Below are positions 19,683 to 48,509 of a stretch of DNA of 64,000 bases, piece by piece. Each line of letters begins with the position of its first letter. Position 1 is the stretch's first letter. Made by a program: the position numbers and the translations under genes. The notes below the pieces were generated by a model that worked only from the letters and a program-made list of their open reading frames with translations, had not been told where the DNA came from and made no database searches. Origin of the DNA: an uncultured Eubacteriales bacterium (GTDB lineage: Bacteria > Acidobacteriota > Aminicenantia > Aminicenantales > Aminicenantaceae); NCBI GenBank assembly GCA_964429795.1, contig CAYSCW010000003.1:67061-131060 (forward strand), read 5' to 3'.

Positions 19683-19820
19683 ATTTGTTGTAGCCCGCCT
19701 TCAATTCCAACAATTCAAATTTGTTGTAGCCCGCCTTCAATTCCCAAAATCAAGACCAACATCAATTCCACAATTCCAATTCCATACTTCAAATACAAAT
19801 TACGCTTTCAATTCATACTT
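19683..19820. repeat. C/A-rich repeat array right of the RAYT gene
   Basis: Two exact 26-bp copies of ATTTGTTGTAGCCCGCCTTCAATTCC (19683-19708 and 19719-19744), then CAATTC iterations and ACTTCAAATA. Confidence 0.8.
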
Positions 19821-21679: not shown

Positions 21680-21694
21680 CCTTCCTCCCAAAAA

Positions 21695-35506: not shown

Positions 35507-36238
35507 ATGCCCCAGAACTATAAGCTCGTCTTCAGCTATGACGGAACAGATTTCCACGGCTGGCAACGGCAGCCCCGAAAACGGACTGTTCAAGGCGTGA
35601 TCGAGGATTTGCTGGAGAGAATCGTCCATAAGAGAACACCTGTCACAGGTGCAGGAAGGACAGATGCGGGCGTCCATGCTCAAGGCCAAGTCGCTCACTT
35701 CAAGGTCAAAACCAGTATGAAGGAAGAAGAGCTCTGCCGGGCCCTGAATTCTCTGCTGCCCCCTGATGTGCGGGTTGTTTCTCTGGCGAAAGCCGACCCC
35801 GACTTCCACGCCCGAAAAATGGCTCACTCCAAAATCTATCAATACCGCATATTTAACTCTCCCCGCATCACCCCCTTCCTCATCCGCTATGTCCACCAGT
35901 GGTCCTCTCCCCTTGATATCACTCAGATGAAAAAGGCCGCTTCCCTCTTCATCAGGGAAGCCGACTTTTCTGGCTTTTCATCCAACAGGTTTCTCTATCC
36001 AGTAAGGAAGGTCCTCTCTTCTGATATAACAAAAAAGAGTCATGAAATCACCTACACCGTGGAGGCCAATGGATTCTTAAGATACATGGTCAGGACCATG
36101 GTGGGGACTCTGCTGGAAATAGGCAGAGGAAAATTCCCTCCTTCGATCATCGATGAAATCTTCGAAGAGAAGCAGCGTTCCCTGGCCGGTCCTACAGCCC
36201 CAGCCAAGGGACTATGCCTGATGAAGGTGATCTACTGA
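35507..36238 (+). CDS. truA: tRNA pseudouridine(38-40) synthase
   Basis: YDGTDFHGWQ, GAGRTDAGVHA, FLRYMVR and APAKGL motifs. Confidence 0.96.
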   Translation: MPQNYKLVFSYDGTDFHGWQRQPRKRTVQGVIEDLLERIVHKRTPVTGAGRTDAGVHAQGQVAHFKVKTSMKEEELCRALNSLLPPDVRVVSLAKADPDFHARKMAHSKIYQYRIFNSPRITPFLIRYVHQWSSPLDITQMKKAASLFIREADFSGFSSNRFLYPVRKVLSSDITKKSHEITYTVEANGFLRYMVRTMVGTLLEIGRGKFPPSIIDEIFEEKQRSLAGPTAPAKGLCLMKVIY

Positions 36239-36666
36239 ACAAGGCGCCTTCCCATGATGATGGCGTGTTCCTCGGGATTCCGGTAATAGTCCTTCCTTAT
36301 GCCCACTATTTCAAAATCCAATTTTCTGTACAGGTTCAGAGCTGCCGTGTTGGAAGGTCTAACCTCTAAAAAAATGAATTTTGTTCTGTTTTTTCTCAAT
36401 TGAGACAGCAGTTGTCTCAACACCGTCTCTCCGATACCCATTCTTCTGTAATCTGGGTGGATGGCGATATTACTGATCTGAACCTCCTTATTCAGGGTCC
36501 AGTAAATGAAATAGCCGATAATCCTCTTCTCGATGCTGTGAATAATGACATAAGGATGAGAGACCGGATAGTTGTGGATCTCACCAAGAAAGGCGGATTC
36601 ATGCCAGGGATTGGTGAATGAGACCCTCTCGATTGCCCACACTTCAGGCACATCGTCATCCATCAT
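36232..36666 (-). CDS. rimI: Ribosomal-protein-alanine N-acetyltransferase
   Basis: NIAIHPDYRRMGIG, LEVRPSN and RKDYY motifs; follows tsaB. Confidence 0.93.
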   Translation of the reverse strand: MMDDDVPEVWAIERVSFTNPWHESAFLGEIHNYPVSHPYVIIHSIEKRIIGYFIYWTLNKEVQISNIAIHPDYRRMGIGETVLRQLLSQLRKNRTKFIFLEVRPSNTAALNLYRKLDFEIVGIRKDYYRNPEEHAIIMGRRLVQ

Positions 36667-36706
36667 CTTCCTGAAATAAAAGAAGTTCTGTGGAAATTTT
36701 TCTCCC

Positions 36707-37387
36707 TTAATCTTTCTCCTCCGCCTGCGACTTCCTAAAATAGAGAGGCCGGACCTGGCGAAAATCTTTGCCTTTGTTATCCCTCAGCATCTGGTATCCC
36801 AATAGCCCAATCTCATGGGCGATAAAAAGGGAACGCGAAGATAGTCGCGCTTTATCCTTGAAATATTGAAAAATTTTCTCTTTGTAAACATCGACTCCGC
36901 TCCCGATAAAATGAATGACTCGGTGCGAAGGAAGAAGAGAGAAGAAACGGTCAGGGGAATAGGCTCCCTGAGGAACAATCTCATTCAGCTTTTTTCCCCT
37001 TGATTCGAAAAGACCTGCATAGATTTCTCCTTTCTTCGCATCCAGGAGCGGGGAAAGGAGGCGCTTTTGAGGGTCCTTCAGTTTGAGAGCCAATGCCTCC
37101 AGGGTAGATACCGGAGCAATCGGTTTTCCCGAAGCCCAGCCAAATGATTTGATCGTGCTCAAACCGATCCGAATCCCTGTAAAAGAGCCCGGCCCGACAG
37201 AAAGGGCATAGCCATCGACATCCTGGATATCAAGGCTGTTGCTCTCCAGGATAAAATCAATAGCAGGAAGGAGCTTCTCTGAATGGGTCATGGGAGATTC
37301 CAGGTTAACCTCAGCCAGAAGCGTTGTCTTTCTCAACAGGGCCACAGAGCCCGAGAACGTGGTTGTATCCACGGCCAGGATAAGCAT
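36707..37387 (-). CDS. tsaB: tRNA threonylcarbamoyladenosine protein TsaB
   Basis: LAVDTT, HSEKLLP, GPGSFTGIRIG, DAKKGEIY and PLYFRKSQAE motifs. Confidence 0.94.
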   Translation of the reverse strand: MLILAVDTTTFSGSVALLRKTTLLAEVNLESPMTHSEKLLPAIDFILESNSLDIQDVDGYALSVGPGSFTGIRIGLSTIKSFGWASGKPIAPVSTLEALALKLKDPQKRLLSPLLDAKKGEIYAGLFESRGKKLNEIVPQGAYSPDRFFSLLPSHRVIHFIGSGVDVYKEKIFQYFKDKARLSSRSLFIAHEIGLLGYQMLRDNKGKDFRQVRPLYFRKSQAEEKD

Positions 37388-37397
37388 AAATGATTAC

Positions 37398-37937
37398 CTA
37401 TTTGATGGTTTTCCCATAGTCGAAAAGACCTCCAGCCATAAAAATATCACATTGAACCTGACTCATGGGATTAAATTGAAAGATGATATTTTTGGTGATG
37501 TTTCTTCCCGAACTTTTTCGAAAGTCGATTTCAACCAGGTCTCCTGTCTCCAAGCCCTTCTGAGCCACTAACTCTTCAAGCTGGGGACCCCTCAGGAGAG
37601 GGAAACCCGAATTGATTGCATTCCGGAAGTAGATGGCCCCGAAGGAAGGCGCAAGAATGCATCTGATTTTCAATGAAATGAAGCAATCCACAGCCTGTTG
37701 ACGAGATGAGCCTGCCCCAAAATTTCTTCCGGCAACGATGATGTCTCCGGACCTGGCTTTTTGGGCGAAATCCTTCCATCCTTCCAGATTTCCCATGGCA
37801 TATTGTCCCATCTCGGAAAGCTCAGTGATATGAAGAAAGGCGTTGTGATAGATCTGGTCGGTATCGATGTCCGCGATCAATTTTCCCTCTTCGTCCAAAA
37901 TAACCCAGATCCTTCCTTGATGAATCGTGCTTTTCAT
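37398..37937 (-). CDS. Aconitase-family small subunit (LeuD-like), second copy
   Basis: DIDTDQI, GRNFGAGSSRQQA and SFGAIYFRNAINSG motifs. ATG at 37937 directly after the large-subunit stop. Confidence 0.9.
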   Translation of the reverse strand: MKSTIHQGRIWVILDEEGKLIADIDTDQIYHNAFLHITELSEMGQYAMGNLEGWKDFAQKARSGDIIVAGRNFGAGSSRQQAVDCFISLKIRCILAPSFGAIYFRNAINSGFPLLRGPQLEELVAQKGLETGDLVEIDFRKSSGRNITKNIIFQFNPMSQVQCDIFMAGGLFDYGKTIK

Positions 37938-37938
37938 C

Positions 37939-39189
37939 CTAGAGGTCCTCCGGGCTGGCAATCTGACCGGCCGCACAAGAAGCGGCCACAACCGCTGGAC
38001 TGGCCAAGTATGTTTTTCCCTTACCCTGTTTGCCGACAAAATTACGGTTTCCGGTGCTGATCTGAACCTCCCCCTCTCCAGTTAACCCGACCATCCCCTC
38101 CGCACAACCGCCGCAACCAGGGCTGGAGATGATGGCGCCGCTTCGAAACAGGCCTTCGATGATACCTTTTTCGAGAAGCTCTGTGTAGACGCGTTTTGTG
38201 GCAGGAACGATTTTAAGCATGATATCTTCTTTCACTTTCCTCCCCTTTAAAATACGGTAAGCTTCCTCAAAATCTTCTGTGCGTCCGTTGGTGCAGGAGC
38301 CGATGAACCCGGAATCAATTCTGACCCCTCGAAGTTCGGAGACAGAAAAGACATTTGTGGGAGAGAAAGGGGCAGCTACCTGGGGAGGAAGTCCATCCAG
38401 GTCGATCTCAATTTCATCCGTGTAAACACAATCTTTATCTGGCTTGAGAGGCGAAAATTTTGACCCTGAAAAATGTCCGATTTCCTCCACCAGCGATCTT
38501 TTAAATTCAGGGACAAATCCGATGATTCCGGCCATCTCGGTGACCATGCTGCACAGGGTGATCCGGCCGGAAAGAGAAAGGCGTTCTGCTGGCTGTCCGT
38601 AAAATTCGACGGCTTTCAAGGCGACCTTTTCGGTCCCCAGTTTTTTCAGGAGGAAAAGGGTTAAATCCTTGGCCGATGAAGGCCAGGAATACTCTCCTCT
38701 AAGGAGAATCCTGACGGTCTCCGGGATCTCAAACCAGGTCTTTCCGGTCTTAAAGGCGAAGGAGATATCCACATCTCCCATGCCCTGCCCAAAGCAGCCT
38801 ATGGCACCAAGGATGTTCATATGGCTATCTGTTCCCACAACCGTGGAGTTGGATTCAGCCAAATCCTCTTCCATCAAAACATGAGAGCCGATACCTCTGT
38901 CCACATCAAAGACTCTTATATTCTGTTTGCGGGCAAAGATACGGCATATCTGCTGGTTGTCGGCGTACTTGAGGGAGCTAGCTGGGGCACAAAGGTCAAA
39001 AGTAAAGAAAGTTCTATCGGGATCAGCCACTGGCTCATCTCCGTATTCCCTCTTATAATTCTTAACCACATTGGGACCCCCAAAATCCCGAGCTGACCGG
39101 ATGTCGAGATTCATCCAGACAATTTTCCCAGGCTTCACCTCTTCCTTGGTGTGGGACTGGATGATCTTCTCGATGACGGTTTTTCCCAT
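37939..39189 (-). CDS. Aconitase-family large subunit (LeuC-like), divergent second copy
   Basis: GTDSH, GSCTNGR, CGGC and STGNRNF motifs. The DH motif is replaced by DL. Confidence 0.9.
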   Translation of the reverse strand: MGKTVIEKIIQSHTKEEVKPGKIVWMNLDIRSARDFGGPNVVKNYKREYGDEPVADPDRTFFTFDLCAPASSLKYADNQQICRIFARKQNIRVFDVDRGIGSHVLMEEDLAESNSTVVGTDSHMNILGAIGCFGQGMGDVDISFAFKTGKTWFEIPETVRILLRGEYSWPSSAKDLTLFLLKKLGTEKVALKAVEFYGQPAERLSLSGRITLCSMVTEMAGIIGFVPEFKRSLVEEIGHFSGSKFSPLKPDKDCVYTDEIEIDLDGLPPQVAAPFSPTNVFSVSELRGVRIDSGFIGSCTNGRTEDFEEAYRILKGRKVKEDIMLKIVPATKRVYTELLEKGIIEGLFRSGAIISSPGCGGCAEGMVGLTGEGEVQISTGNRNFVGKQGKGKTYLASPAVVAASCAAGQIASPEDL

Positions 39190-39200
39190 GGTCTTATTTT

Positions 39201-40316
39201 TTAAAGCTTGGAAGCTACCTCACGGGCCATATCCAGGCTGGTCGAGCTCCCGCCTAAATCATAGGTTCTTACCTTTCCTTCCTTGATCACTGCAGCAACG
39301 GCTTCTTCCATGACCCGCGCTTTATCTCTCTCTCCCAGCCATTCAAGCATCATCTTAGTTGCCAAAAGCATAGCCGTCGGGTTCACCTTGTAAAGGCCGG
39401 CGTACTTGGGAGCAGAGCCATGCGTGGGCTCAAAAACGGCATAACTATCTCCGATGTTGCCGCTGCAAGCAAAACCCAGCCCGCCTACAAGCTGAGCAGA
39501 AAGGTCGGAGATGATATCTCCGAACAGATTTTCTGCCACCAAAACATCATAATCCTGGGGATTCTTCACCAGCCACATGGCCATGGCATCCACATTGGCT
39601 TCCCTGAATTCCACATCTGGATATTCCTTGGCCATCTTCCTGGCTATCTCCAGGATGAAACCGCCAGTTTCTCGCAAGACATTAGGTTTTTCCACGATGG
39701 TGACTGACCGACGTTTATATTCCCGGGCATACTCAAAGGCCCGCCTCAGAATTCTGGTACAGGCATTTTTGGTCATGATCCTGGTGGAAAGGGCAATCTC
39801 TTCCAGCGGGAAGTCCTCAAATTTCTTCATCTTGGGGTGGAGGAGCAAAGCCTTCATCACTTCCTCTGGGAGAGGATGAAATTCCACCCCCGCATACATG
39901 CCCTCTGTGTTTTCTCGAAATATTACCAGATCTATGTCATCGCGGTAATTGAGAGGGTTACCAGGATAGGCTTTGCAAGGCCTGAGATTGGTATAGAGGT
40001 CAAATTCCTGACGAAGGCGAACGATAGGACTGAAATAGGAAAAACCTTTATCCCGGAGCGACGGATCGAGCTCCATGAGGGCTTCTTCCTTCGGCTTGGA
40101 GGTGATGGCCCCAAACAGACAGACATCTGTTGTCTTGAGCATCTGGATGGTCCGGTCAGGAAGCGGATTCCCTTCCTCACACCAGTACTTCCAGCCGATA
40201 TCGCCATAGACATATTCGGCATCAAGACCTAACCTCTCCAGCACGATCATGGCCGCTTCCACCACATCCTTGCCCACCCCGTCTCCGGGCAGGACGGCTA
40301 TCCTGTATTCCGGCAT
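39201..40316 (-). CDS. Isocitrate/isopropylmalate/homoisocitrate dehydrogenase family protein
   Basis: PGDGVG, SPIVRLRQ, NLRP, RENTEG, KPNV, NLFGDIISD and EPTHGSAP motifs. Confidence 0.92.
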   Translation of the reverse strand: MPEYRIAVLPGDGVGKDVVEAAMIVLERLGLDAEYVYGDIGWKYWCEEGNPLPDRTIQMLKTTDVCLFGAITSKPKEEALMELDPSLRDKGFSYFSPIVRLRQEFDLYTNLRPCKAYPGNPLNYRDDIDLVIFRENTEGMYAGVEFHPLPEEVMKALLLHPKMKKFEDFPLEEIALSTRIMTKNACTRILRRAFEYAREYKRRSVTIVEKPNVLRETGGFILEIARKMAKEYPDVEFREANVDAMAMWLVKNPQDYDVLVAENLFGDIISDLSAQLVGGLGFACSGNIGDSYAVFEPTHGSAPKYAGLYKVNPTAMLLATKMMLEWLGERDKARVMEEAVAAVIKEGKVRTYDLGGSSTSLDMAREVASKL

Positions 40317-40433
40317 CGAATCCTCCTCTCAAGATAGGGTCTCATCCCTTTGTCCCTGTCCTCACTGAGCATTTAAGACTTAAGCCCTCTTCTTTAATAA
40401 TCCAAGCCAGTGATGATCACGTTTTGACTTCTT

Positions 40434-40949
40434 TTAATGGCATCTGCGTTGGATTCTTGTTTTATTTTGCAGTTTTTTCTTAATATAGGGGATAAGGCCT
40501 CCGGCCTCAAAGATTCTGAGCACCTCTCTTGGAGGAGGAGAAAAGGTCAAGATTTCCTCTCCGGTCTTGATCTCTCCCTGGATGAAACCGATCTCCACCT
40601 CCTCACCCTGGCTGAGGCGGTCAGCCGCCTCCTTCGATTGAATCACGGGCAATCCCTGGTTTATGGCATTGCGGAAAAAAATCCGGGCAAAAGACTTGGC
40701 AATCACCGCCTGAACGCCGGCATACTTGAGGCAGGTAGCAGCCTGTTCCCTTGAGCTTCCACAGCCGAAATTGGTCCCAGCAACAATCACATCTCCAGGC
40801 TTGACCTTTTGGGCAAAACCGGGGTCCAGGTCCTCAAGAGCATGCTTGGCCATCTCCTCAGGCTCCAGAATAGAATAGGTGTATTTCCCAGGAAAGATGA
40901 TGTCGGTGTTGACATCATCCCCGTACTTCCATACTTTTCCTTTTTTCAC
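40434..40949 (-). CDS. Aconitase-family small subunit (LeuD-like), first copy
   Basis: DDVNTDII, NFGCGSSREQA and SFARIFFRNAINQG motifs. GTG start overlaps the large-subunit stop (GTGA). Confidence 0.9.
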   Translation of the reverse strand: MKKGKVWKYGDDVNTDIIFPGKYTYSILEPEEMAKHALEDLDPGFAQKVKPGDVIVAGTNFGCGSSREQAATCLKYAGVQAVIAKSFARIFFRNAINQGLPVIQSKEAADRLSQGEEVEIGFIQGEIKTGEEILTFSPPPREVLRIFEAGGLIPYIKKKLQNKTRIQRRCH

Positions 40950-42199
40950 AGGAATTTCCTCGGATCCGCTATATTTCCTTCCAGGGCTGAAGCGGCCACC
41001 GTAGCCGGAGATGCCAGATAAATCTCCGCATCGCGGCTTCCCATCCTCCCACGAAAGTTCCGGTTGGCTGTGCTCAAAGCCACTTCTCCTGGAGCAAGAA
41101 CTCCTTGATGGGCTCCCAGGCAGGGGCCGCAACCAGGGTTCAATATCACACATCCCGATTCAGAAAAAATCTTCAAGACGCCTCTCTCAATAGCTTGCAG
41201 GTACACTTTCCTGGATGAGGGAATAATGAGTGCTCGAATCTTAGGATGGACCTTTCTTCCTTTTAAAATCTTGGCTGCGATCTCTAGGTCTTCCAGCCTC
41301 CCGTTGGTGCAGGTGCCGATAACAGCTTGGTTGAATGGAGTGCATTCAACCTCGCTGATTATCTTGACATTATCCACTGTATGAGGGCAGGCTACCTGCG
41401 GCTCAAGCGAAGAGACATCGTACTTGAGGATGGCTTCATACCGGGCGTCAGGATCGGAAAAAACGGCCGTAAAATCTGCTTTTGCCCCTCCCTTCAGCCA
41501 ATCGAATGTCCTCTGGTCAGCCTCGCAGTAGGCGCTCTTGGCACCCATCTCTGCACCCATGTTGGAAAGCACCATCCGGGAAGCCAGACTGAAATTCCTA
41601 ACCGTTTCTCCCGCAAACTCCAAAGCCTTATAATTGGCCCTTTCTGCTCCCTCCTCACCAATAATCTTCAAGATGACATCCTTGGCATAGACCCCCAAGG
41701 AAAGCTTCCCCTCGATTTCCATCCTTATGGTCTCAGGAACCTTAAGCCATATCTCATCTGTGGCCCAGAGGCTGGCCACTTCTGAGCGGCCAATTCCTGC
41801 TGAAAAGGCTCCAAAAGCTCCGGAGGTTGGGGTATGGGAGTCAGCACCCAGGATCAGTTTTCCGGGCAGGGCAAAGCCTTCCTCAGCAAACACCTGGTGG
41901 CAGATCCCATAAGGAATATCATAGAAGTAGTCGATCTTCTGTTCGGCCACAAACTCGCGGATGATCTTATGATTCATGGCGTATTTTTCAGAAGCTGCAG
42001 GAACCACGTGATCCAGGATGATGACGATTTTCTGAGGGCATTTAACCTTCTTTAAGCCTAGCTTTCCAAACTCCATGATGATGGCGGCGGAATTGTCGTG
42101 GGAGAGGATGAAATCAGGAGAGGCAATGACGATTTCTCCTGCGCATGCCTCTTTTTCCGCCTTATCAGTGAGAATTTTCTCGGCGAATGTCTTTCCCAA
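40946..42199 (-). CDS. Aconitase-family large subunit (LeuC/HacA-like), first copy
   Basis: SHDN, LDH, GADSHT, GTCTNGR, CGPC and NRNFRGRMG motifs. Confidence 0.92.
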   Translation of the reverse strand: MGKTFAEKILTDKAEKEACAGEIVIASPDFILSHDNSAAIIMEFGKLGLKKVKCPQKIVIILDHVVPAASEKYAMNHKIIREFVAEQKIDYFYDIPYGICHQVFAEEGFALPGKLILGADSHTPTSGAFGAFSAGIGRSEVASLWATDEIWLKVPETIRMEIEGKLSLGVYAKDVILKIIGEEGAERANYKALEFAGETVRNFSLASRMVLSNMGAEMGAKSAYCEADQRTFDWLKGGAKADFTAVFSDPDARYEAILKYDVSSLEPQVACPHTVDNVKIISEVECTPFNQAVIGTCTNGRLEDLEIAAKILKGRKVHPKIRALIIPSSRKVYLQAIERGVLKIFSESGCVILNPGCGPCLGAHQGVLAPGEVALSTANRNFRGRMGSRDAEIYLASPATVAASALEGNIADPRKFL

Positions 42200-42219
42200 A
42201 GAAAACCTCCTTGGATGCT

Positions 42220-42753
42220 TTAAACCTCCAAGCTCTCAAAATTCACAAAGTCGGCATGATTGACGATGATAGCCTCCACTGTCCTTCGTGCCCCATCTCC
42301 TTCCTTGGAATGGGCAGCAATGATGTGGATCACTTCCTGTGGGATTCCGTGTTGGAAAGCAAAGGAAGCACCTGAGATGGGATGGCGGAGGAGCTTACCT
42401 TCATCGCTTTTGACGAACCTCTCCCCTTCTCTTCTGTATTCGAAGAGTTTTCCCACATCATGCAGGAGCGCTCCAGAGAGAAGATGATCCAGGTTGATGG
42501 AAATCTTCTCTTTGTATTCCTTGATCAGAATCTCGGCAATCCTCAAGCTGCACAGAGTCACCGCTCTTGTGTGTTGAATGATATTAATTGAGGTCCTCGC
42601 GATCAAGAGAGTAAAAGGCATCTCGGTCAAGTCTTCCGTCTTCCATCCGCCCCGCTTTATAGCCTCCTGCCATACATGGATGGTCTTCTCACGGAGGCCG
42701 CTGTCTTTGATAAGCTCGAATTCCGGGATGATGGACAAGAGTTTCGGGTTCAT
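42220..42753 (-). CDS. Stand-alone HD-domain phosphohydrolase
   Basis: QHT, LLHDVGK, RHP, HIIAAH and HAD motifs. Confidence 0.9.
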   Translation of the reverse strand: MNPKLLSIIPEFELIKDSGLREKTIHVWQEAIKRGGWKTEDLTEMPFTLLIARTSINIIQHTRAVTLCSLRIAEILIKEYKEKISINLDHLLSGALLHDVGKLFEYRREGERFVKSDEGKLLRHPISGASFAFQHGIPQEVIHIIAAHSKEGDGARRTVEAIIVNHADFVNFESLEV

Positions 42754-43530
42754 CTAAATCTCCTTTTCTTGGGGACCATCATATTCATAATCTTGAGGAT
42801 GGATCTTCCGCATGGGCCTCATCCGCGTTTTCTCCTCATGGATATGAGCCACCAGGCCAGGCACCCGGGCGATGATGAAAAAGGCGTTGCCAATCTCCGA
42901 AGGAACATCAAGCTCACAGAGAAGGGCAGCTATGGCACCATCTACGTTAATGGGCAAAGACTTGCCAAGAAGCCCGACCAGTTCTTCCTCCACAGCCCTT
43001 GCGATCCGGACGTATTTTCCCGCAAGGCCTAACTCCTCAGCCAGGGAAAAGAGCTTTTTGGTGCGAGGGTCCTGAGTGTGGATGCGGTGACCAAATCCTG
43101 AAGCTCTTTTCTTCTTCTTTTTCATCTCCTTCAAGGCGTCCGCAGCCGCTTCTCTCTCGGATATCCCCTTCTCCTCCATCCTTCCAGCGATCTCATGAAA
43201 GAGCTCCATCCCTTCTTCGATGGCCCCTCCGTGAAAGCGAGATATGGCCAAAACACCGGCCGCTATGGCTGAATTCAGTTCTGCCCCGGTAGAGGCTACT
43301 GTCCTCGCCGCCAGGACTGAAGGCGGACTGGCGCCGTGATCCACGGATGAGACAAAAATGGCATCGATAAGTTTTCCCTTTTCAGGCGATGGAAGCTCTC
43401 CCTTTAAAACCAGGTAGATCACCTGAGAAAAGGAAATTTCGCCCATCAACTTGTCTATGGGATACCCCCTGAGCGAGACTCTATTGGGTTGGACATCGGT
43501 TATTGCCGTTTTCCAATGAAGTTCACTCAT
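42754..43530 (-). CDS. Citryl-CoA-lyase-like protein (short citrate-synthase fold)
   Basis: DHG, HGGA, GFGHR, DPR, NVDG and ARVPG motifs in 258 aa. Confidence 0.88.
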   Translation of the reverse strand: MSELHWKTAITDVQPNRVSLRGYPIDKLMGEISFSQVIYLVLKGELPSPEKGKLIDAIFVSSVDHGASPPSVLAARTVASTGAELNSAIAAGVLAISRFHGGAIEEGMELFHEIAGRMEEKGISEREAAADALKEMKKKKKRASGFGHRIHTQDPRTKKLFSLAEELGLAGKYVRIARAVEEELVGLLGKSLPINVDGAIAALLCELDVPSEIGNAFFIIARVPGLVAHIHEEKTRMRPMRKIHPQDYEYDGPQEKEI

Positions 43531-44438
43531 TACTGTCCCCCTAAAGAATTTCTTATTTCTTTGGCCATTTCAGGAATATCGGAAACAGAATCGACCACAT
43601 GGACGCCGGCTTCTTTAAGCCTCTTGACCTTGCTCTCATAAGAGCCCCGCGACCCTTCCACGATGGCACCGGCATGGGAAAATCTTGTGCCCGATTTGGC
43701 GGCTCTGCCCCCGACAAAAGCGATGAGAGGCTTGGTGAAATTTTTCTGTTCTATGAGGGCAGCCACCCTTTCTTCCTGGGTGGTTCCAATCTCCCCGAAC
43801 ATGACCACCATCTTTGTCTGGTTATCCTGTTCAAAAAGCTCCATGACCTCAGGACTGGAAAGGCCGACCACTGCATCTCCGCCCACATGGATGATAGTGC
43901 TCTGTCCAAAACCCGCCTCTGTCAAATAGTAGGCAATGGCTGATGTCATGCCGCCGCTTCTTGAACTGACTCCGATATCACCGGGACGAAACCACTCCCT
44001 GGCTCTTTCTGCCCGGCCGCCAATCATGCCCAGGACAGCTTTCCCCGGACTCACAAGGCCCAGGGTGTTAGGGCCGACAAAGCGGGCACTCTTCTCCTTG
44101 GCAAAGTTGCTTATTTCCAGAACATCAAAAATGGGGACGCGGTCCGGGACAAGAACAAGCAGGTTCACTCCTGCGGCGATGGCTTCCAAGGCTGCACTCT
44201 TAACCAGATGGGCAGGAACAAAAACCACGCTGATATCGATCTGGCCGGTCTTCTCTACCGCCTCTTCCATAGAATCAAAGACCGGAACTCCGTAGACCTC
44301 AACTCCTCCCTTTCCGGGAGTCACCCCTGCCACTACGTTCGTTCCGTAATCCTTCATCAATCGGGTGCGGACCATCCCTTCTCTTCCAGTAATTCCCTGA
44401 ATACACACTCTCGACCTTCCGTCCGCCAAAATAGCCAT
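43530..44438 (-). CDS. ADP-forming acyl-CoA ligase alpha subunit (SucD / citryl-CoA synthetase-like)
   Basis: QGITG, GVTPGKGG, GPNTLG, SRSGG, GGD, GEIG and RFSHAGA (phospho-His) motifs. Confidence 0.9.
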   Translation of the reverse strand: MAILADGRSRVCIQGITGREGMVRTRLMKDYGTNVVAGVTPGKGGVEVYGVPVFDSMEEAVEKTGQIDISVVFVPAHLVKSAALEAIAAGVNLLVLVPDRVPIFDVLEISNFAKEKSARFVGPNTLGLVSPGKAVLGMIGGRAERAREWFRPGDIGVSSRSGGMTSAIAYYLTEAGFGQSTIIHVGGDAVVGLSSPEVMELFEQDNQTKMVVMFGEIGTTQEERVAALIEQKNFTKPLIAFVGGRAAKSGTRFSHAGAIVEGSRGSYESKVKRLKEAGVHVVDSVSDIPEMAKEIRNSLGGQ

Positions 44439-44506
44439 TTATTTTCCTCTTAAAATCAAGAGATTCGTTTCCAATCTCAGAAGATCGGTAGATGTCCCTG
44501 ATTTTC

Positions 44507-46072
44507 TCAAGATCTTTCTCCTTCTTCGATGATTCTCTCCCTGTATTCCTTGAGCCCTGGAATGGGAAGACGGATGAAGATGGCATTCTGCTCGTGAAAG
44601 CTGCAGAAGATCTCACAGGCCAGACATTCCGTGCACTTCCCCTTCTCTGCTTCTCCCGGAGAGACAGCAAGAACAGGCTTCCCATCTTCAAGTTTGAGAA
44701 TCTCTGCCTTGCAGGCTTCTATGCATCCCTTTGTCTTGCAGCGGGGGCATTTTTGATGGTCGATGGCAAGTTCTCCAGTCAGAGTCTTGAAAGAATAACA
44801 GTCTTCGGGGAGAGAAGGCTCCATCATCGGCTTCACGCGATGGGAGTGGCGACTGTTTTCTTCGATTAGCTCCTCAAGCCTCTGAGCACAGAATTCGGGT
44901 GAATCATTCCTTCCATACCCTTCCACTTTGGCTGGAATATCTTTGAGGTAAGTGGCCAGAATCTCAGCGGCTTCCTCTTCAAAGTTTCCTCCGAGGCGGA
45001 TCACCCCGGGGATAGCGAGATTTTCCTCCCGGAAAGCCTTGACCAAACCTCTTGCTGAATGGTACTGCTCCTGGCTGGCCACACCAGATCCAGAGGCAAA
45101 ATAACCCTTGATGTGGGGCTGAGAAAGGATGATTTTGGCTGCCCGGTAGACCTTGCTCGCAGCAGGATTTCCGCTTGTGTCACAGTAATTGGCCAGCTTA
45201 AATCCCTTACTCAATACAGCATCCATGGACATCATCGAACCGCCGCCCCCAGCACCGTTAAAACCGATGTAAGGTTCTTCCTCCGGAATCTCCTCTGCCA
45301 TCTGGAAGAAATAGAATGTGCCCCGGTAATCGCTTTCCTCAACCTGATAGGCGATCTTTTCCAGCTCGGTGGGAGGACGATCGAATTCTCTGGCCACTTC
45401 AATGCCCAGCTCAGGATGGCGGAATGCGGCATAGTCATCGATGGTCAGGTGGCAATCGGCCGCGTAAACAAGGCCTTCTTCAGTCACCACCAGAGGATTT
45501 ATCTCCGCTGAGCGGGCGTCGTACCTACGGGCGATCATGTAGAATTTTGTCAAAGTGTCTGAGAGTCGAAGAAGAAGCTTTCCAGATATTCCCGTTTTCC
45601 GTATGAGGTTGCGAACTTCATACTCCTTGAGCCCTCTCAGGATATCGATGGGAATCTGAGATATCTTCTCCGGATGGGACCGGGCGATCTCTTCCACTCC
45701 TGTGCCTCCTGCAGAACTGAAGATGAGCAGGGGGCACTTTTTGGAGTCATCGATGACAAGGCCTGCAAAGTACTCAGACTTGATGTTGAGTCTTTCTTCG
45801 ACCAAGACCTTTTCGATGATGAAATTCTTAACCTTCATTCCCAACATTTGTTTGGCAATCGCTTCGGCTTGTTGCGGGCTCTCGGCAAATTTTATCCCTC
45901 CCAAGCCGGCTCTCCCTGTCAGCCAGACCTGAATCTTTAGCACTACTGGTTTTTTCACCTGCTCGGCGATCTGACGCGCTTCAGAAGGCGTGGAAGCTAC
46001 ACCGCCATCTGGAATGCGGATTCCTCCTTCCTGGAGAAGCTTTTTGCTCAGGTATTCATAGAGACGGGCCAT
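44507..46072 (-). CDS. ADP-forming acyl-CoA ligase beta subunit (SucC-like) with a C-terminal ferredoxin-like domain
   Basis: LYEY.SK.LL, KIQV..TGR..LGGI, EINPL, GAGGGGSM and N.CDTSG motifs. C-terminus CPRCKTKGCIEAC...CTECLACEIFC. Confidence 0.88.
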   Translation of the reverse strand: MARLYEYLSKKLLQEGGIRIPDGGVASTPSEARQIAEQVKKPVVLKIQVWLTGRAGLGGIKFAESPQQAEAIAKQMLGMKVKNFIIEKVLVEERLNIKSEYFAGLVIDDSKKCPLLIFSSAGGTGVEEIARSHPEKISQIPIDILRGLKEYEVRNLIRKTGISGKLLLRLSDTLTKFYMIARRYDARSAEINPLVVTEEGLVYAADCHLTIDDYAAFRHPELGIEVAREFDRPPTELEKIAYQVEESDYRGTFYFFQMAEEIPEEEPYIGFNGAGGGGSMMSMDAVLSKGFKLANYCDTSGNPAASKVYRAAKIILSQPHIKGYFASGSGVASQEQYHSARGLVKAFREENLAIPGVIRLGGNFEEEAAEILATYLKDIPAKVEGYGRNDSPEFCAQRLEELIEENSRHSHRVKPMMEPSLPEDCYSFKTLTGELAIDHQKCPRCKTKGCIEACKAEILKLEDGKPVLAVSPGEAEKGKCTECLACEIFCSFHEQNAIFIRLPIPGLKEYRERIIEEGERS

Positions 46073-46237
46073 TCTGGTTTTCTCTCGAGTTAATATTATT
46101 CAGACGGTGATGAAATTTGTCAATGGAATAAGATAGTAATTCCATCTGACTCCTTTTGCGCTTTGACATAATTTTTGCTCCTATGATATTTAATACACAA
46201 GATATCAATGATGCACATCGGCAAGTAAGGAGGCCAC

Positions 46238-46405
46238 ATGAAATGCATCGCTTTTCTCTTAATCATTCACATCCTGCTTTTTATCTTCCCTGGGAATCAA
46301 GCCGGGATTCGGCCTAAAAACGATGCCGGGATCTGGTCTTCATCTCTGTGGCTTTCTTCATCTCATTACCTCCTGCAAGCTTTATTCCTGTCCTCTGCTA
46401 TATAA
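46238..46405 (+). CDS. Small 55-aa ORF with hydrophobic N-terminus (small protein or remnant)
   Basis: TAAGGAGG RBS then ATG; MKCIAFLLIIHILLFIFP...; below the ORF-track cutoff. Confidence 0.35.
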   Translation: MKCIAFLLIIHILLFIFPGNQAGIRPKNDAGIWSSSLWLSSSHYLLQALFLSSAI

Positions 46406-46673: not shown

Positions 46674-47360
46674 TTAGCCTTCATTTTTTTCTTCTGTAGG
46701 ATAGTATTTCTTTATAAATTTTTTCTGAACTTTGAAGGACCAATGCACATCCCTGATAAAATTTGCAGCATCCAGAAATTTACCCTCGGCTAGGAGATTT
46801 AACAATTGTTGGTGTTCTTTTATCGATGTTTCTTCCCATTCTTTTATGTATCCCTTCCGGCGTGGGAAGTCATAAAGCCTTTTTTTTAAAATATCCACTG
46901 TCCTCCTGAGCATCCTGTTTCCAGCCTGATTAATGTATACATCATGAAACATGAGATTCCTTTCATAGAAGGCATCAAAATTGTCCTTCTCTATAGCCCT
47001 CTTCATTCCTTCATTGAGCTTCTCCATTTTCTTAATGTCCGAGGCTTTCAGGCTTTCAGAAGCGGCTATGATCGCCGTACTCTCCAGAGCTCCTAATATC
47101 TGATAATAATCTTTAATATCCTGAAGAGTGAGCTTATTGACGATAACACCCCGCCGAGGCAGAATCGTTACAAAGCCTTCCCTCTCAAGCTGCAAAAGGG
47201 CATCTCTCAGGGGTGTCTTACTCACCCCTAATTTCTTACTGGTAGAATCCATATTTATCACTGAATCAGGTAGAATCTCTCCTATCTTCATCTGATGCCT
47301 CAGATATTCATAAACCTGGTCTTTCAAAGAAGAAAGATTGATTATGCCCGTTTTGGCCAT
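46674..47360 (-). CDS. GntR-family regulator with FCD domain
   Basis: SLKDQVYEYLR..LGVSKTPLRDAL.QLEREGFV..PRRG winged HTH; FH..Y and EH...L in the FCD domain. Confidence 0.92.
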   Translation of the reverse strand: MAKTGIINLSSLKDQVYEYLRHQMKIGEILPDSVINMDSTSKKLGVSKTPLRDALLQLEREGFVTILPRRGVIVNKLTLQDIKDYYQILGALESTAIIAASESLKASDIKKMEKLNEGMKRAIEKDNFDAFYERNLMFHDVYINQAGNRMLRRTVDILKKRLYDFPRRKGYIKEWEETSIKEHQQLLNLLAEGKFLDAANFIRDVHWSFKVQKKFIKKYYPTEEKNEG

Positions 47361-47596: not shown

Positions 47597-48505
47597 ATGA
47601 AAAAGGGGATAATCTTCGATATTAAAAGATACGCCATCCATGATGGGCCTGGAATACGGACCACTGTTTTCTTCAAAGGCTGTCCTTTGCGGTGCTTGTG
47701 GTGTCATAATCCTGAAGGCCTAGTTTCTGAACCTGAGCTTACTTTTATAAAAACCAGATGTCTTCAAGATTGCAATGAATGTGTGGAGAGCTGCACAAGA
47801 GGAGCGCTTTCCCGCCCTGATCAAGATATATTTATGGACAGAGAAAAATGTGACCTTTGCGGCGATTGTGTTCAGGTGTGCCCTACTGAGGCTCTTGAAA
47901 TCATAGGGAGATGGATGAGTATAGAAGAAGTCATGAGAGAGATAGAAAAAGATATAATATTTTACGATGACTCAAAGGGAGGAGTGACATTTTCGGGAGG
48001 GGAACCTCTCTTGCAACCCGAGTTTCTAAATGCCCTACTCGAGGAATGCAAGAAAAAGGGCATTCACACCAGTTTAGATACGTCGGGATATGTCCCCATC
48101 GAAAACTTGGAAAAAATCAAAGATAAAGTTGACCTCTTTTTATACGATATTAAAATGATTGATGATGAAAAGCATAAAAAAACCACAGGAGTTTCGAATA
48201 AGTCAATTCTTGATAATTTAAGAAAACTTTCCGAGAAAGGAAACAATATTGTTGTTCGAATTCCAGTTATTCCCGGGATAAACAACACCGATGAAGACAT
48301 TTCCAAAATCGCTGAATTTATTACAACTCTCAAGGAAATAAAAGAGATCTGTCTTCTTCCTTACCATAATATAGCCAATCATAAATACGAGAGATTGAAT
48401 AGACCCTTTATGATGAAAAAGACGGAGCCTCTCTCCCAAAAAAATAAAGAGGAAATAAAGAAAAAATTTGAACACTTTGGATTTAAGGTAAGAATTGGAG
48501 AGTAG
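47597..48505 (+). CDS. Glycyl-radical enzyme activating enzyme (radical SAM with ferredoxin insert)
   Basis: HDGPGIRT, GCPLRCLWCHNPE, two extra Cys clusters, GGEPLLQ and LPYH motifs. Confidence 0.95.
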   Translation: MKKGIIFDIKRYAIHDGPGIRTTVFFKGCPLRCLWCHNPEGLVSEPELTFIKTRCLQDCNECVESCTRGALSRPDQDIFMDREKCDLCGDCVQVCPTEALEIIGRWMSIEEVMREIEKDIIFYDDSKGGVTFSGGEPLLQPEFLNALLEECKKKGIHTSLDTSGYVPIENLEKIKDKVDLFLYDIKMIDDEKHKKTTGVSNKSILDNLRKLSEKGNNIVVRIPVIPGINNTDEDISKIAEFITTLKEIKEICLLPYHNIANHKYERLNRPFMMKKTEPLSQKNKEEIKKKFEHFGFKVRIGE

Positions 48506-48509
48506 AGAG

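Follow-up and report, generated by a model that had tools for sequence, protein, structure and literature searches.

An uncultured Candidatus Aminicenantes bacterium carries nine closely packed genes that could, quite possibly, form a citrate branch with no citrate synthase: acetyl-CoA + oxaloacetate <-> citrate <-> isocitrate <-> 2-oxoglutarate, in which a CoA ligase and a citryl-CoA-lyase-type enzyme would take the place of citrate synthase and conserve ATP. We put this assignment forward tentatively, as the aligned residues give conflicting cues to the substrate: the lyase appears citrate-like, the substrate loop of the dehydrogenase homoisocitrate-like, and the ligase is devoid of the citrate ligands of ACL and CCS. 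If true, the branch would save the ATP otherwise wasted by citrate synthase.

Operon organization and conservation

The genes, numbered G1 to G9 in order of transcription, all lie on the minus strand (46072..37398) of the window, the whole stretch of 64,000 nucleotides that was analysed; at superfamily level, each product belongs to the family given in Table 1. As a preliminary description of this DNA had it, the genes share one strand and are tightly packed, the largest gap being 117 nt. G2 and G3 overlap by ATGA, G3 and G4 abut, G5 and G6 overlap by GTGA (the GTG start of G6 falls on the stop codon of G5) and 1 nt separates G8 from G9; the remaining gaps, of 68, 20, 117 and 11 nt, contain Shine-Dalgarno-like sequences. 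Ahead of G1 we found a candidate promoter, and no riboswitch or leader, amino-acid or lysine riboswitch, or T-box. The same description claimed that citrate and homocitrate synthases are missing; indeed, neither these nor isopropylmalate synthase (leuA) is encoded in the operon or in the window ORFs scanned.

Table 1 Coordinates of the operon genes, their subfeatures and flanking elements
Feature	Coordinates	Strand	Basis
G1, acyl-CoA ligase beta subunit (ATP-grasp, SucC/ACL-B-like), 521 aa	44507..46072	-	Pfam ATP-grasp_2, 5.9e-52
2x[4Fe-4S] ferredoxin-like domain of G1, C-terminal	44588..44767	-	C442-x2-C-x4-C-x3-C; C480-x2-C-x2-C-x3-C
G2, ligase alpha subunit, 302 aa	43530..44438	-	Pfam CoA_binding, Ligase_CoA; SucD-like
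G3, citryl-CoA-lyase-type C-C lyase (citrate-synthase C-terminal fold), 258 aa	42754..43530	-	NF004869
G4, small HD-domain metalloprotein, 177 aa	42220..42753	-	Pfam HD; H61, H98-D99, H124, H148, D168
G5, aconitase-family large subunit (LeuC/HacA type)	40946..42199	-	NF001614, 559 bits
G6, small subunit, partner of G5	40434..40946	-	LEUD_arch, 201 bits
G7, beta-decarboxylating dehydrogenase	39201..40316	-	Pfam Iso_dh
G8, divergent aconitase-family large subunit	37939..39189	-	NF001614, 400 bits; all equivalogs far under cutoff
G9, divergent small subunit, partner of G8	37398..37937	-	LEUD_arch, 128 bits; GSSRQQ
Sigma-70-like promoter (candidate site, match to consensus only)	46095..46123	-	TTGACA-17-AATAAT, 11/12 consensus matches; 23 nt 5' of G1 start codon
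tsaB and rimI-like GNAT gene	36232..37387	-	Pfam TsaD family, Acetyltransf_1; 10 and 40 nt downstream, co-oriented

Of 46 informative species loci, 27 show the full G1 to G9 order; this conservation, which the preliminary description had proposed to check, excludes a chance arrangement, as dozens of species-level genomes have the operon. Ligase beta, ligase alpha, the citryl-CoA-lyase-like protein and the HD protein form a four-gene core, present in 57 of 63 informative loci; these come from at least five phyla, with WOR-3, Marinimicrobia, Calditrichota and Hydrothermota among them. Outside Aminicenantes, conservation covers only these first four genes, a point overlooked before. The neighbours in other phyla belong to central carbon metabolism (genes for 2-oxoacid dehydrogenase E1 and E3, lipB and nuo), which speaks for citrate. 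In Calditrichota and Marinimicrobia loci G8/G9 are absent, and a divergent MmgE/PrpD protein comes after G7; since the known substrates of MmgE/PrpD proteins are tri- or tetracarboxylates, this suggests that the intermediate is a tricarboxylate and that two enzymes isomerise it.

Downstream of G9, tsaB and a rimI-like gene continue in the operon's orientation, which the preliminary description had missed. tsaB is the next gene after G9 in most Aminicenantes loci, and both genes are probably co-transcribed housekeeping neighbours outside the pathway.

Substrate and cofactor determinants of the enzymes

G3 is the best-anchored part of the operon. At 273 bits it clears the cutoff (212) of the citryl-CoA lyase subfamily NF004869 (NCBIfam), and it is 46% identical (209 bits) to H. 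thermophilus CCL, whose structure is solved (6hxp). Columns invariant between G3 and E. coli GltA comprise H65, H100, H148, R156, D197, F218 and R222, corresponding by order to citrate-synthase H229, H264, H305, R314, D362, F383 and R387; R407 is matched in the alignment by R243. Every catalytic and oxaloacetate-binding residue in the published citrate-synthase list (PMC13147460) is thus kept, and G3 looks specific for oxaloacetate/citrate.

Both ligase subunits fall short of the NCBIfam cutoffs, G1 with 249 bits where SucC requires 370-375 and G2 with 298 bits where sucCoAalpha requires 353. Their best PDB matches are Thermus SCS-beta for G1 (234 bits; the large subunit of H. thermophilus CCS gives 135) and archaeal SCS-alpha 2yv2 for G2 (288 bits, with 162 bits for CcsB, 6hxq_A). 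G2 and, in G1, the ATP-grasp half thus resemble succinyl-CoA synthetases more closely than they do the CCS of Hydrogenobacter, which counts against citrate. G2 has a phosphohistidine loop, SHAGA, with His255. In a neighbour-joining tree of 116 relatives, the ligase phylogeny suggested in the preliminary description, SucC-type sequences fall outside the clade of G1 in 50/50 bootstraps; G1 sits within a non-SucC radiation that includes ACL/CCS-type proteins (48/50), in favour of citrate. Given the scores and the separate clade, we rejected G1/G2 as a true SucCD. G1 also gives a weak match to ACL Citrate_bind (Pfam, 28.2 bits) and has the GGGGS and SGNP loops in common with CcsA and ACL. On the other hand, it reads VASQEQ and IRLGG, both conserved across its clade, where CcsA and ACL have ANNT/ANFT and RR; the citrate ligands of ACLY and CcsA are missing, with S/E/L at N346/T348/R379, which argues against citrate.

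A further feature of G1, also overlooked before, is its ferredoxin-like C-terminus. Seven of its eight cysteines are invariant and one is present in at least 90% of a 15-sequence alignment; both Cys motifs occur in 72/72 full-length orthologues, across phyla. The match to Pfam Fer4_9 is weak, and we infer metal binding from the cysteines. The HD protein G4 immediately follows G3 in the 57 of 63 loci mentioned above, but no informative relative of it was found; its AF2 model (pLDDT 87.6) best matches the HD domain of YhaM at a TM of only 0.66, making the fold generic.

Among the hydro-lyases, G5 has complete catalytic motifs (DH, DSH, three Cys, NRNFRGR), while its scores of 476 against 550 for HacA_Meth and 462 against 611 for LEU2 lie below the NCBIfam equivalog cutoffs. 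G8 is without the Asp-His pair and has Asp-Leu instead (FDLCAP), substitutions that are conserved in sampled orthologues. The specificity loop of G6, PGKYTYS, bears a one-residue insertion relative to 3vba, 2pkp and 1v7l, and that of G9, IYHNAFLHI, is conserved. By alignment, these loops (GKYTYS and IYHNAFLHI) fit neither isopropylmalate isomerase (ARYLVY) nor homoaconitase (GPYLRT). Neither G6 nor G9 has the homoaconitase loop Arg or the aconitase Arg580 for the third carboxylate, again against citrate.

In NCBIfam, G7 comes closest to AksF2, although its score of 353 stays under the cutoff of 540; it shares 45% identity with both TtHICDH and the NAD-IDH 6lky, and 34% with E. coli Icd. It contains the K344/Y345/V351 NADP motif of Icd (HGSAPKYAG.YKVNP) and an Icd-type insertion past the catalytic Tyr, as expected for citrate, unlike the compared LeuB, TtHICDH and NAD-IDH sequences, which read SAPDIAG/SAPDIAD and then IANP; we therefore predict that it is NADP-dependent. 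HGSAPKY is found in 33/33 orthologues and SPIV(R)LR in 31/33. The substrate loop, YFSPIVRLR, places Ile at the isocitrate dehydrogenase gamma-carboxylate ligand Asn115, against citrate, and matches the fungal homoisocitrate dehydrogenase of S. pombe (3ty3, YSSPIVALR), just as the preliminary description had recognised; it looks homoisocitrate-like. With sub-equivalog scores, loops of non-IPMI type and an NADP-type motif, the LeuCD pairs and G7 were rejected as ordinary leucine enzymes. The preliminary description had named three ways in which it could fail (a genuine SucCD, ordinary leucine enzymes, a gene set kept together nowhere else); each was tested and none was found.

Proposed pathway and competing explanations

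We propose a self-contained, near-equilibrium branch, acetyl-CoA + oxaloacetate <-> citryl-CoA <-> citrate <-> cis-aconitate <-> isocitrate <-> 2-oxoglutarate + CO2. G3 would form or cleave the C-C bond, and the two-subunit ligase G1/G2 (ADP- or GDP-forming) would exchange the thioester for a nucleoside triphosphate. Dehydration and rehydration would be split between two distinct Fe-S hydro-lyases, G5/G6 and G8/G9, the PrpD-like protein standing in for G8/G9 in other phyla, and G7 would carry out NADP-linked oxidation and decarboxylation of the isomerised product. Flux may run mainly forward in these fermentative heterotrophs, supplying 2-oxoglutarate for glutamate; as a guess, the ferredoxin-like domain and HD protein could exert redox or phospho-control of the ligase. 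The self-contained reversible (homo)citrate route of the preliminary description is partly supported, its parts disagreeing on the substrate. Caldithrix abyssi, for its part, is reported to have canonical citrate synthase, AcnA and monomeric IDH (PMC5317091). Calditrichota MAGs, from its phylum, carry G1-G4 and G7; if C. abyssi has the cluster too, then given its canonical enzymes the cluster is not simply gap-filling there, a point against citrate.

A homocitrate version, which we find rather unlikely, would run acetyl-CoA + 2-oxoglutarate <-> homocitryl-CoA <-> homocitrate -> cis-homoaconitate -> homoisocitrate -> 2-oxoadipate, with G8/G9 or the PrpD-like protein giving cis-homoaconitate, G5/G6 homoisocitrate and G7 2-oxoadipate. 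Such a route would elongate 2-oxoacids or be of the alpha-aminoadipate type, and would do without a synthase of the LeuA/NifV family. The S. pombe-like loop of G7 argues for it, as do the homoisocitrate dehydrogenases that are its best NCBIfam and near-best PDB matches, and the citrate ligands missing from G1. Fungi require two aconitase-family enzymes to turn homocitrate into homoisocitrate, and the homoaconitase of Thermus catalyses just the latter half of this conversion; two hydro-lyase pairs would match both. However, G3 retains all its oxaloacetate-binding residues unchanged, and we know of no citrate-synthase-fold enzyme using 2-oxoglutarate; G7 bears the NADP-Icd motif where the aligned homoisocitrate dehydrogenase has NAD-type SAPDIAG, and to our knowledge characterised homoisocitrate dehydrogenases use NAD; G6, moreover, does not have the YLRT Arg of homoaconitase. 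Links to lysine are equally scarce: none of the 80 inspected loci has lysW/X/Z/Y/J/K genes nearby, the lysine riboswitch is absent, and MurE encoded in the window retains the mDAP-type Arg, so that lysine may be made via the DAP route, a weak inference. C. abyssi bears on both sides, since it makes lysine by the LysW/aminoadipate route, with pathway homologues that the authors place in a 'TCA cycle locus', but already has its own homocitrate synthase (PMC5317091).

The citrate chemistry could also be reversed, 2-oxoglutarate (e.g. from glutamate) being carboxylated with NADPH to isocitrate and the resulting citrate cleaved with ATP to acetyl-CoA and oxaloacetate, an rTCA-type segment for amino-acid fermentation or gluconeogenesis (electron sink, acetyl-CoA source) or for CO2 fixation. 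The NADP-type motif of G7 suits reductive carboxylation, the reaction energies are close to equilibrium (PMC13147460), and Aminicenantes are described as fermentative anaerobes using peptides and sugars, yet these descriptions of the lineage show no sign of autotrophy (PMC5459899; PMC4897734). Sequence cannot reveal direction; still, the cluster lacks 2-oxoglutarate carboxylase, 2-oxoglutarate:ferredoxin oxidoreductase and fumarate reductase, its housekeeping synteny (tsaB/rimI) and strong, constitutive-looking promoter suit anabolism better, and we deem reversal improbable. Poor odds also attach to another, undescribed substrate, a hydroxy-di- or tricarboxylate (citramalate/alkylmalate type or an unknown acid) handled by the same logic or catabolically, the ferredoxin-like domain and HD protein being integral to chemistry not yet imagined. 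It would account for the G1 loops, conserved Glu included, that fit neither SucC nor ACL/CCS, for G6/G9 loops and a G8 active site that have no counterpart in any characterised family member, for Ile at the Asn115 position of G7, as in non-isocitrate enzymes, for a G4 without informative relatives, and for some Aminicenantes in which G1-G2 are paired with a class II aldolase-like protein and the lyase is missing. It sits badly with the citrate-synthase-like active site of G3 and the tricarboxylates indicated by the PrpD-like partner; by chemical reasoning, 2-alkylcitrates would isomerise to tertiary alcohols that a dehydrogenase cannot oxidise. The conserved surroundings of the cluster, moreover, include no transporter or catabolic regulator, a GntR gene being adjacent in the closest relative only. 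Finally, it is very improbable that ordinary genes are merely co-located, with G1/G2 the succinyl-CoA synthetase of the cell, the LeuCD pairs and G7 leucine/isoleucine enzymes and G3 an orphan, a short homologue of citrate synthase. The SucC-like RLxGN loop of G1, the top PDB hits of both ligase subunits (from succinyl-CoA synthetases) and JGI annotations ('succinyl-CoA synthetase beta subunit', '3-isopropylmalate dehydrogenase') would agree with this, but all NCBIfam equivalog/subfamily cutoffs for SucC, SucD, LeuC, LeuD and LeuB are unmet, and the G1 clade, the non-IPMI loops and the non-LeuB motif of G7 tell against it. So do the translational coupling of G2/G3, the four-gene synteny across phyla, a distinct LeuC-like gene in one Calditrichota locus, and the absence of leuA, leader and T-box.

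Likeness to known citrate-cleavage systems

In the preferred citrate reading, G1, G2 and G3 together would make a three-polypeptide equivalent of ATP-citrate lyase. Their order, beta-alpha-CCL with G2 and G3 overlapping, mirrors AclB/AclA and the domain order of ACLY, which favours citrate. Desulfobacter postgatei uses ATP-citrate lyase oxidatively, conserving ATP. Gibbs energies close to zero have been published for the ACL, CCS and CCL reactions, which are therefore reversible; the only characterised ligase + CCL system (Hydrogenobacter, Leptospirillum) runs toward cleavage (PMC13147460), as the reversed scheme would have it. The preliminary description equated the ligase and lyase with the Hydrogenobacter pair. 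Since G2 is closest to archaeal SCS-alpha and not to CcsB, the system is an analogue, rather than an orthologue, of that of Hydrogenobacter.

Layout and conservation of the operon

A check of the ORF coordinates places all nine genes, here G1 to G9, on the minus strand where the preliminary description had put them. They encode the beta and alpha subunits of a CoA ligase (G1, G2), a lyase resembling citryl-CoA lyase (CCL; G3), an HD protein (G4), two LeuC/LeuD-like pairs (G5/G6 and G8/G9) and a beta-decarboxylating dehydrogenase (G7). Their junctions are of operon type: G2 and G3 share an ATGA overlap and G5 and G6 a GTGA overlap, G3 abuts G4, one base separates G8 from G9, and a Shine-Dalgarno-like sequence occurs in each of the remaining gaps (68, 20, 117 and 11 nt). 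A TTGACA-17-AATAAT site ends 23 nt upstream of the G1 start codon; no Rfam riboswitch, T-box or leader was found upstream of the operon. Next downstream, on the same strand, are tsaB and a rimI-like gene. No citrate, homocitrate or isopropylmalate synthase is present among the window ORFs scanned, in line with the earlier remark on the first two.

Genes of the operon, of the neighbouring AT-rich island and of variant loci from other genomes (L numbers, positions within each locus)
Feature	Position	Strand	Length (aa)	Assignment (G1 to G9 by domain search)
G1	46072..44507	-	521	SucC-like ATP-grasp
G2	44438..43530	-	302	SucD-like
G3	43530..42754	-	258	citrate-synthase C-terminal fold
G4	42753..42220	-	177	HD
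G5	42199..40946	-		LeuC-like
G6	40946..40434	-		LeuD-like
G7	40316..39201	-	371	Iso_dh
G8	39189..37939	-		divergent LeuC-like
G9	37937..37398	-		divergent LeuD-like
Island gene	47360..46674	-		GntR/FCD regulator
Island gene	47597..48505	+		radical-SAM glycyl-radical activase
Island gene	48495..50873	+		PFL-like glycyl radical enzyme
L071	9748-11127			MmgE/PrpD-family, adjoining G7 orthologue
L076	8740-10110			MmgE/PrpD-family, adjoining G7 orthologue
L069	19048-20436			MmgE/PrpD-family, adjoining G7 orthologue
L049	12459-13121			aldolase-like variant locus
L057	2984-3652, 4584-6089			aldolase-like variant locus
L056				aldolase-like variant locus
L065				aldolase-like variant locus

The AT-rich island (window 46100-50900; GC 0.38-0.40, against 0.47-0.51 in its surroundings) may have been acquired horizontally. 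We rejected its GntR gene as the operon regulator: only the closest relative has it beside G1, and it accompanies the AT-rich glycyl-radical-enzyme pair, which it probably serves. Elsewhere in the window, an IS200/Y1-type transposase gene (18882-19607) lies in the stretch of lowest GC (0.376) and adjoins a TonB-dependent receptor gene (19820..21691, minus strand). Two flanking genes (34921-35382 and 24379-24948), of the SLOG cluster4 (LDcluster4) family and the C_GCAxxG_C_C putative redox proteins, show no obvious connection with the operon. MurE (1170-2666), encoded in the dcw/mur cluster, reads DNSR-SEDP in place of the canonical DNPR motif; it retains the mDAP-adding-type Arg, a weak argument for lysine synthesis through the DAP route.

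Homologues of G1 at 72-93% identity come from Candidatus Aminicenantes MAGs, and so do those of G7 and G4. A scan with a G1 alignment, over one genome per species, matched at least 599 stretches, of which at least 541 encode a relative. The best 80 of these (at least) 541 loci, which we fetched and compared with the window proteins by tblastn, are spread over Aminicenantes, WOR-3, Marinimicrobia, Calditrichota and Hydrothermota. The operon is indeed kept elsewhere: where enough downstream sequence is available, G1-G2-G3-G4 occur in this order in 57 of 63 loci and the complete G1 to G9 order in 27 of 46, usually with tsaB next. Ligase, lyase and HD protein are the conserved core.

Around this core the gene set varies. 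WOR-3 loci have G1-G4 only, Calditrichota-type MAGs G1-G4 and G7, one Marinimicrobia MAG G1-G7, and one Hydrothermota MAG at least G1, G2 and G5-G7. In Calditrichota and Marinimicrobia loci, which are without G8/G9, G7 is followed by a highly divergent member of the MmgE/PrpD family (scoring about 100 bits, where PrpD model cutoffs are 458-950); genes for 2-oxoacid dehydrogenase E1 and E3, lipB and nuo lie among the neighbours there. Some Aminicenantes have G7-G8-G9 as a unit of their own, with G1-G6 standing alone. From this pattern of conservation, the cluster is modular and under selection. No lysine-pathway genes were found associated with the inspected loci.

Several variants were seen in passing. 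The Aminicenantes loci include L011 and L019, and some Aminicenantes have only G1-G6 at the operon locus; in L045 (366-3277, 10001-15203), G7-G8-G9 lie about 6 kb upstream of G1-G5. In Marinimicrobia, an N6_N4_Mtase DNA methylase gene separates the G1 and G2 orthologues (L069 11524-12513; L078 6200-7213). A few Aminicenantes loci have, after G1-G2, a class II aldolase/adducin-family gene that replaces G3; their G1 is 64-66% identical to that of the window, and an oxidoreductase of NADPH-glutamate-synthase type (TIGR01316) is encoded nearby. Such aldolase-paired ligases may constitute a second, different module.

Predicted enzymes

The lyase G3 is the firmest anchor of our interpretation. It passes two NCBIfam citryl-CoA lyase cutoffs (NF004869, 272.7 against 212; NF004866, 261.8 against 245) and matches Hydrogenobacter thermophilus CCL (6hxp) with 209 bits and 46% identity, compared with at most 80 bits for citrate synthases and 67 bits for the AclA/ACL CCL module. 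When G3 is aligned with CCL, E. coli GltA and PrpC, residues H65, H100, H148, R156, D197, F218 and R222 are invariant, and R243 is aligned to the Arg of IARPR in GltA; by order, they match the defining residues of E. coli citrate synthase, H229, H264, H305, R314, D362, F383, R387 and R407 (PMC13147460). The active-site motifs are retained in nearly all of 48 orthologues. By family and residues alike, G3 is a predicted citryl-CoA lyase, converting (3S)-citryl-CoA to acetyl-CoA and oxaloacetate. To our knowledge, every known member of this citrate-synthase-type fold uses oxaloacetate. Citryl-CoA synthetase (CCS) and CCL have been reported only in Aquificaceae and Leptospirillum (PMC13147460), and orphan CCL homologues have been noted in Thaumarchaeota.

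The ligase gives a different picture. Its best PDB matches are succinyl-CoA synthetases (SCS): the Thermus beta subunit, in its ATP-grasp half, for G1 (234 bits, against 135 for a CcsA-type CCS subunit; 114 for AclB, 6hxj_A) and an archaeal alpha subunit for G2 (288 bits, against 162 for CcsB). The phosphohistidine loop of G2, FSHAGAIVEG with His255, occurs throughout the superfamily and does not separate its members. The possibility raised beforehand that these are true SucCD proteins nevertheless fails. G1 stays below the SucC cutoffs (249.4 against 375.6 in TIGR01016, 248.5 against 370 in NF001913) and G2 below those of SucD (297.9 against 353.2; 295.7 against 336). G1 has loops AGGGGSMM and DTSGNPAA where SucC has NGAGLAM and DVGGGAT, the GGGGS/SGNP type being common to CcsA and ATP-citrate lyase (ACL). 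It scores 28.2 with Pfam Citrate_bind PF16114 (cutoff 26.8). At the ACL/CCS citrate-ligand positions, however, G1 and its whole clade carry GSGVASQEQ.H and RLGGN: VASQEQ and IRLGG in G1 stand against TANNTR and VRRNGP in CcsA (6hxq_B), and ANFT or ANNT plus RR in ACL/CCS-type representatives. The corresponding citrate-binding residues of ACLY are N346, T348 and R379.

We searched 1.84 billion representatives and built a neighbour-joining tree of 116 hits, with E. coli SucC as the root. In 50/50 bootstraps, no SucC-type sequence falls within the G1-type clade, so the clustering with SucC named beforehand as a possible refutation is not seen, and ACL/CCS-type sequences are excluded just as consistently (50/50); a larger clade of G1-type, ACL/CCS-type and other sequences is without SucC-type members in 48/50. 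Extension-less proteins from Bathyarchaeia belong to the G1-type clade, and almost no distant G1 relatives bear a name, bar the unfused one from Bathyarchaeia. All 72 full-length orthologues share C-terminal Cys motifs of 2x[4Fe-4S] type. An AF2 model of G1 from a 15-sequence alignment (pLDDT 55.6) was too poor for a fold search. Given the PDB scores and the separate clade, G1/G2 are a new ligase lineage, analogous to citryl-CoA synthetase and not orthologous to it.

The HD protein G4, with the ligand set H..HD..H..H..D, is counted as part of the module for its fixed position after the lyase gene. Its AF2 model (pLDDT 87.6) has YhaM as best fold match (TM 0.66) and generic HD-domain matches only; a PDB sequence search gave nothing beyond the generic HD phosphohydrolase fold, and the names of 2,230 homologues read only 'HD domain' or 'HDIG'.

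The two hydro-lyases are not redundant. G5 has the full aconitase-superfamily motif set (three cluster Cys, DSH, the Asp-His pair and NRNFxGR), while G8 keeps the cluster Cys and DSH, with Asp-Leu for Asp-His and NRNFxGK. Where G5 reads LDHVVP and E. coli LeuC MDHNVS, G8 has FDLCAP, and SARDFGG takes the place of LSHDNS, Arg replacing the first-motif His. As these substitutions are conserved across all sampled orthologues, they suggest altered chemistry, not decay. In the specificity loop of the small subunit, G6 reads GKYTYS, with a one-residue insertion, and G9 reads IYHNAFLHI; reference loops are ARYLVY (isopropylmalate/citramalate isomerase, 3vba), GPYLRT (homoaconitase, 2pkp) and GRYNLT. 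Ordinary LeuCD, another earlier possibility, is contradicted both by these loops, which are not YLVY, and by the scores (LEU2 462 for G5 and 327 for G8, against 611; leud 179 for G6 and 111 for G9, against 246). Homoaconitase models are not reached either (HacA_Meth 476 for G5 and 310 for G8, against 550; HacB at most 172, against 230), the Arg of YLRT-type loops is absent from both G6 and G9, and none of the four proteins attains any equivalog cutoff. Two such enzymes, with a PrpD-like stand-in in other phyla, suggest that dehydration and rehydration are divided between them, as in the 2-methylcitrate cycle and the fungal aminoadipate pathway.

The dehydrogenase G7 shares 45% identity with the homoisocitrate dehydrogenase (HICDH) of T. 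thermophilus and with a small NAD-dependent isocitrate dehydrogenase, and 34% with E. coli Icd. It stays below the model cutoffs for isocitrate dehydrogenase (best NF006529, 302.7 against 510) and HICDH (AksF2 352.6 against 540; AksF 298 against 500). The Icd coenzyme motif K344-Y345...V351 (APKYAG..KVNP) is present, G7 reading HGSAPKYAGLYKVNP and E. coli Icd HGTAPKYAGQDKVNP. Within HGSAPKYAG.YKVNP, the NADP-type KY, found in 33/33 orthologues, stands where NAD-type SAPDIAG has DI, and an Icd-like insertion follows the catalytic Tyr. Of the ligands of the isocitrate gamma-carboxylate, G7 (S96-P-I98-V-R-L-R) keeps the Ser113 equivalent and has Ile for Asn115. The HICDH-like loop claimed earlier holds up: YFSPIVRLR resembles YSSPIVALR of S. 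pombe HICDH (3ty3) and differs from both IRSLNVALR of Icd and FGAIRYLR, with Arg85, of T. thermophilus HICDH. Judged by its motifs, G7 is a mosaic of an Icd-type cofactor site, pointing to an isocitrate-dehydrogenase-like role, and an HICDH-type substrate loop, pointing to homoisocitrate or another non-isocitrate substrate.

Proposed route and alternative readings

We propose that G1/G2 and G3 would together act as a three-polypeptide analogue of ATP-citrate lyase, that a two-enzyme aconitase function (G5/G6 and G8/G9) would connect them to the dehydrogenase, and that NADP-dependent oxidative decarboxylation would close the route. The net reaction would be acetyl-CoA + oxaloacetate <-> 2-oxoglutarate + CO2, conserving or spending one NTP. 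This is the most coherent reading of the operon, and we hold it tentatively, at rather less than even confidence, because the ligase is without the known citrate ligands and the G7 loop is homoisocitrate-like. It is further tempered by Caldithrix abyssi, whose phylum includes MAGs with G1-G4 and G7: this bacterium is reported to have canonical TCA enzymes, and it makes lysine by the aminoadipate route, for which there are 'homologues in the TCA locus' (PMC5317091).

Reaction energies of ACL, CCS and CCL are near zero, near equilibrium (PMC13147460), so either direction is possible. We favour the oxidative, anabolic one: the Aminicenantes hosts are fermentative heterotrophs (PMC5459899, PMC4897734), the operon lies among housekeeping genes behind a constitutive-looking promoter, it has no associated lysine-pathway genes, riboswitch or leader, and MurE has the mDAP-type Arg. 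The same chemistry run reductively, to which the energetics pose no obstacle, seems improbable for these hosts. A homocitrate version of the route would suit the G7 loop; with small-subunit loops and scores outside the homoaconitase range and a lyase fold tied to oxaloacetate, we think it unlikely. The altered citrate positions of the ligase would be at home in a route on another substrate altogether, of which the chances seem slim beside the citrate-synthase-like active site of G3. Ordinary SucCD and leucine enzymes, for which the overall best matches of the ligase speak, are hardly credible given the family cutoffs, loops and tree.

A more elaborate proposal, also with little chance of being right, has ligase and lyase acting on homocitrate or another 2-oxoacid adduct, with G8/G9 or the PrpD-like protein as 'homocitrate dehydratase' and the ferredoxin-like (Fer4) domain and HD protein gating the ligase by redox or phosphorylation state. 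Were it true, use of 2-oxoglutarate by an enzyme of citrate-synthase fold would be seen in G3 for the first time, and the operon would be an elongation or aminoadipate-type route without a LeuA/NifV-family synthase that recovers one ATP per condensation; with homocitrate as substrate, it would also supply the long-missing bacterial homocitrate-dehydrating enzyme.

Returning to the citrate reading, citrate synthesis normally wastes energy, and ligase and lyase run backwards would recover one ATP per citrate, which is relevant to energy-starved anaerobes of the subsurface and sediments. Pipelines label genes of this type 'succinyl-CoA synthetase', 'isopropylmalate dehydratase/dehydrogenase' or rTCA markers, and such automatic labels can mislead on autotrophy, TCA completeness and amino-acid prototrophy. 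Four well-studied enzyme families are represented in the cluster by uncharacterised specificity variants, and two additions are unexplained: a 2x[4Fe-4S] domain attached to the CoA ligase, and an HD protein dedicated to the cluster. Altogether, it is a split system of ATP-citrate-lyase type joined to a 2-oxoacid module, wide in uncultured anaerobes.

Comparison with known systems

In agreement with the preliminary description, no pathway with this gene set is described in the literature searched. Two candidates are out on chemistry or fold. In the 2-methylcitrate pathway, 2-methylisocitrate is a tertiary alcohol and not a possible dehydrogenase substrate, and the cluster has no PrpB lyase. An itaconate or citramalyl-CoA route would need another lyase, G3 being of citrate-synthase fold and not of CitE/HpcH type, and there is no hydratase. 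The 2-methylcitrate cycle (PrpD, or AcnD and PrpF) still offers a parallel, since it has a separate dehydratase for a tertiary-alcohol tricarboxylate and an aconitase-family enzyme for rehydration; in Marinimicrobia and Calditrichota, a PrpD-family protein, low-scoring as it is, stands where G8/G9 would be.

With SucCD the ligase shares its fold, the SHAGA phosphohistidine loop, the ATP-grasp domain and the RLxGN loop; it differs in its altered substrate-domain loops, its Fer4 extension and its obligatory link to a lyase gene. The 2-oxoacid elongation modules (LeuABCD; AksA/DE/F of methanogens; homocitrate synthase, homoaconitase and HICDH of the aminoadipate pathway) likewise combine a LeuCD-type Fe-S hydro-lyase with a beta-decarboxylating dehydrogenase. 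The best NCBIfam scores of G5/G6 and G7 are with archaeal HacA/LeuD and AksF-type models, fungal HICDH has a loop of the G7 type, and the fungal aminoadipate pathway needs two hydro-lyases. Here, however, condensation would fall to a CoA ligase and a citrate-synthase-fold lyase in place of a LeuA/NifV (DRE-TIM) synthase, the small-subunit loops are of neither isopropylmalate isomerase nor homoaconitase type, and G7 has the NADP-type motif.

ATP-citrate lyase (AclB/AclA; ACLY) has the same beta-alpha-CCL domain order, and the G2-G3 overlap falls at the point of fusion in AclA. The operon encodes three separate polypeptides instead, with weak sequence similarity and without conserved citrate-binding residues. 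The direction proposed here has a precedent in Desulfobacter, where ACL runs oxidatively and conserves ATP.

The closest likeness claimed beforehand, to the split system of Hydrogenobacter (in H. thermophilus, CcsAB and Ccl; 6hxq, 6hxp), stands in part. The layout agrees, a SucCD-like two-subunit ligase with a short citrate-synthase-fold lyase, and G3 keeps all catalytic residues of Ccl; the ligase, by PDB scores and tree, is not the CcsA/CcsB orthologue. G1 shares the GGGGS and SGNP loops of CcsA without its ANNT and RR citrate ligands, and G2 is nearer to archaeal SCS-alpha than to CcsB. Compared with Hydrogenobacter, the operon adds the 2x[4Fe-4S]-type domain and the HD partner, clusters its genes with hydro-lyases and a dehydrogenase, and resides in anaerobic heterotrophs, not in rTCA autotrophs.
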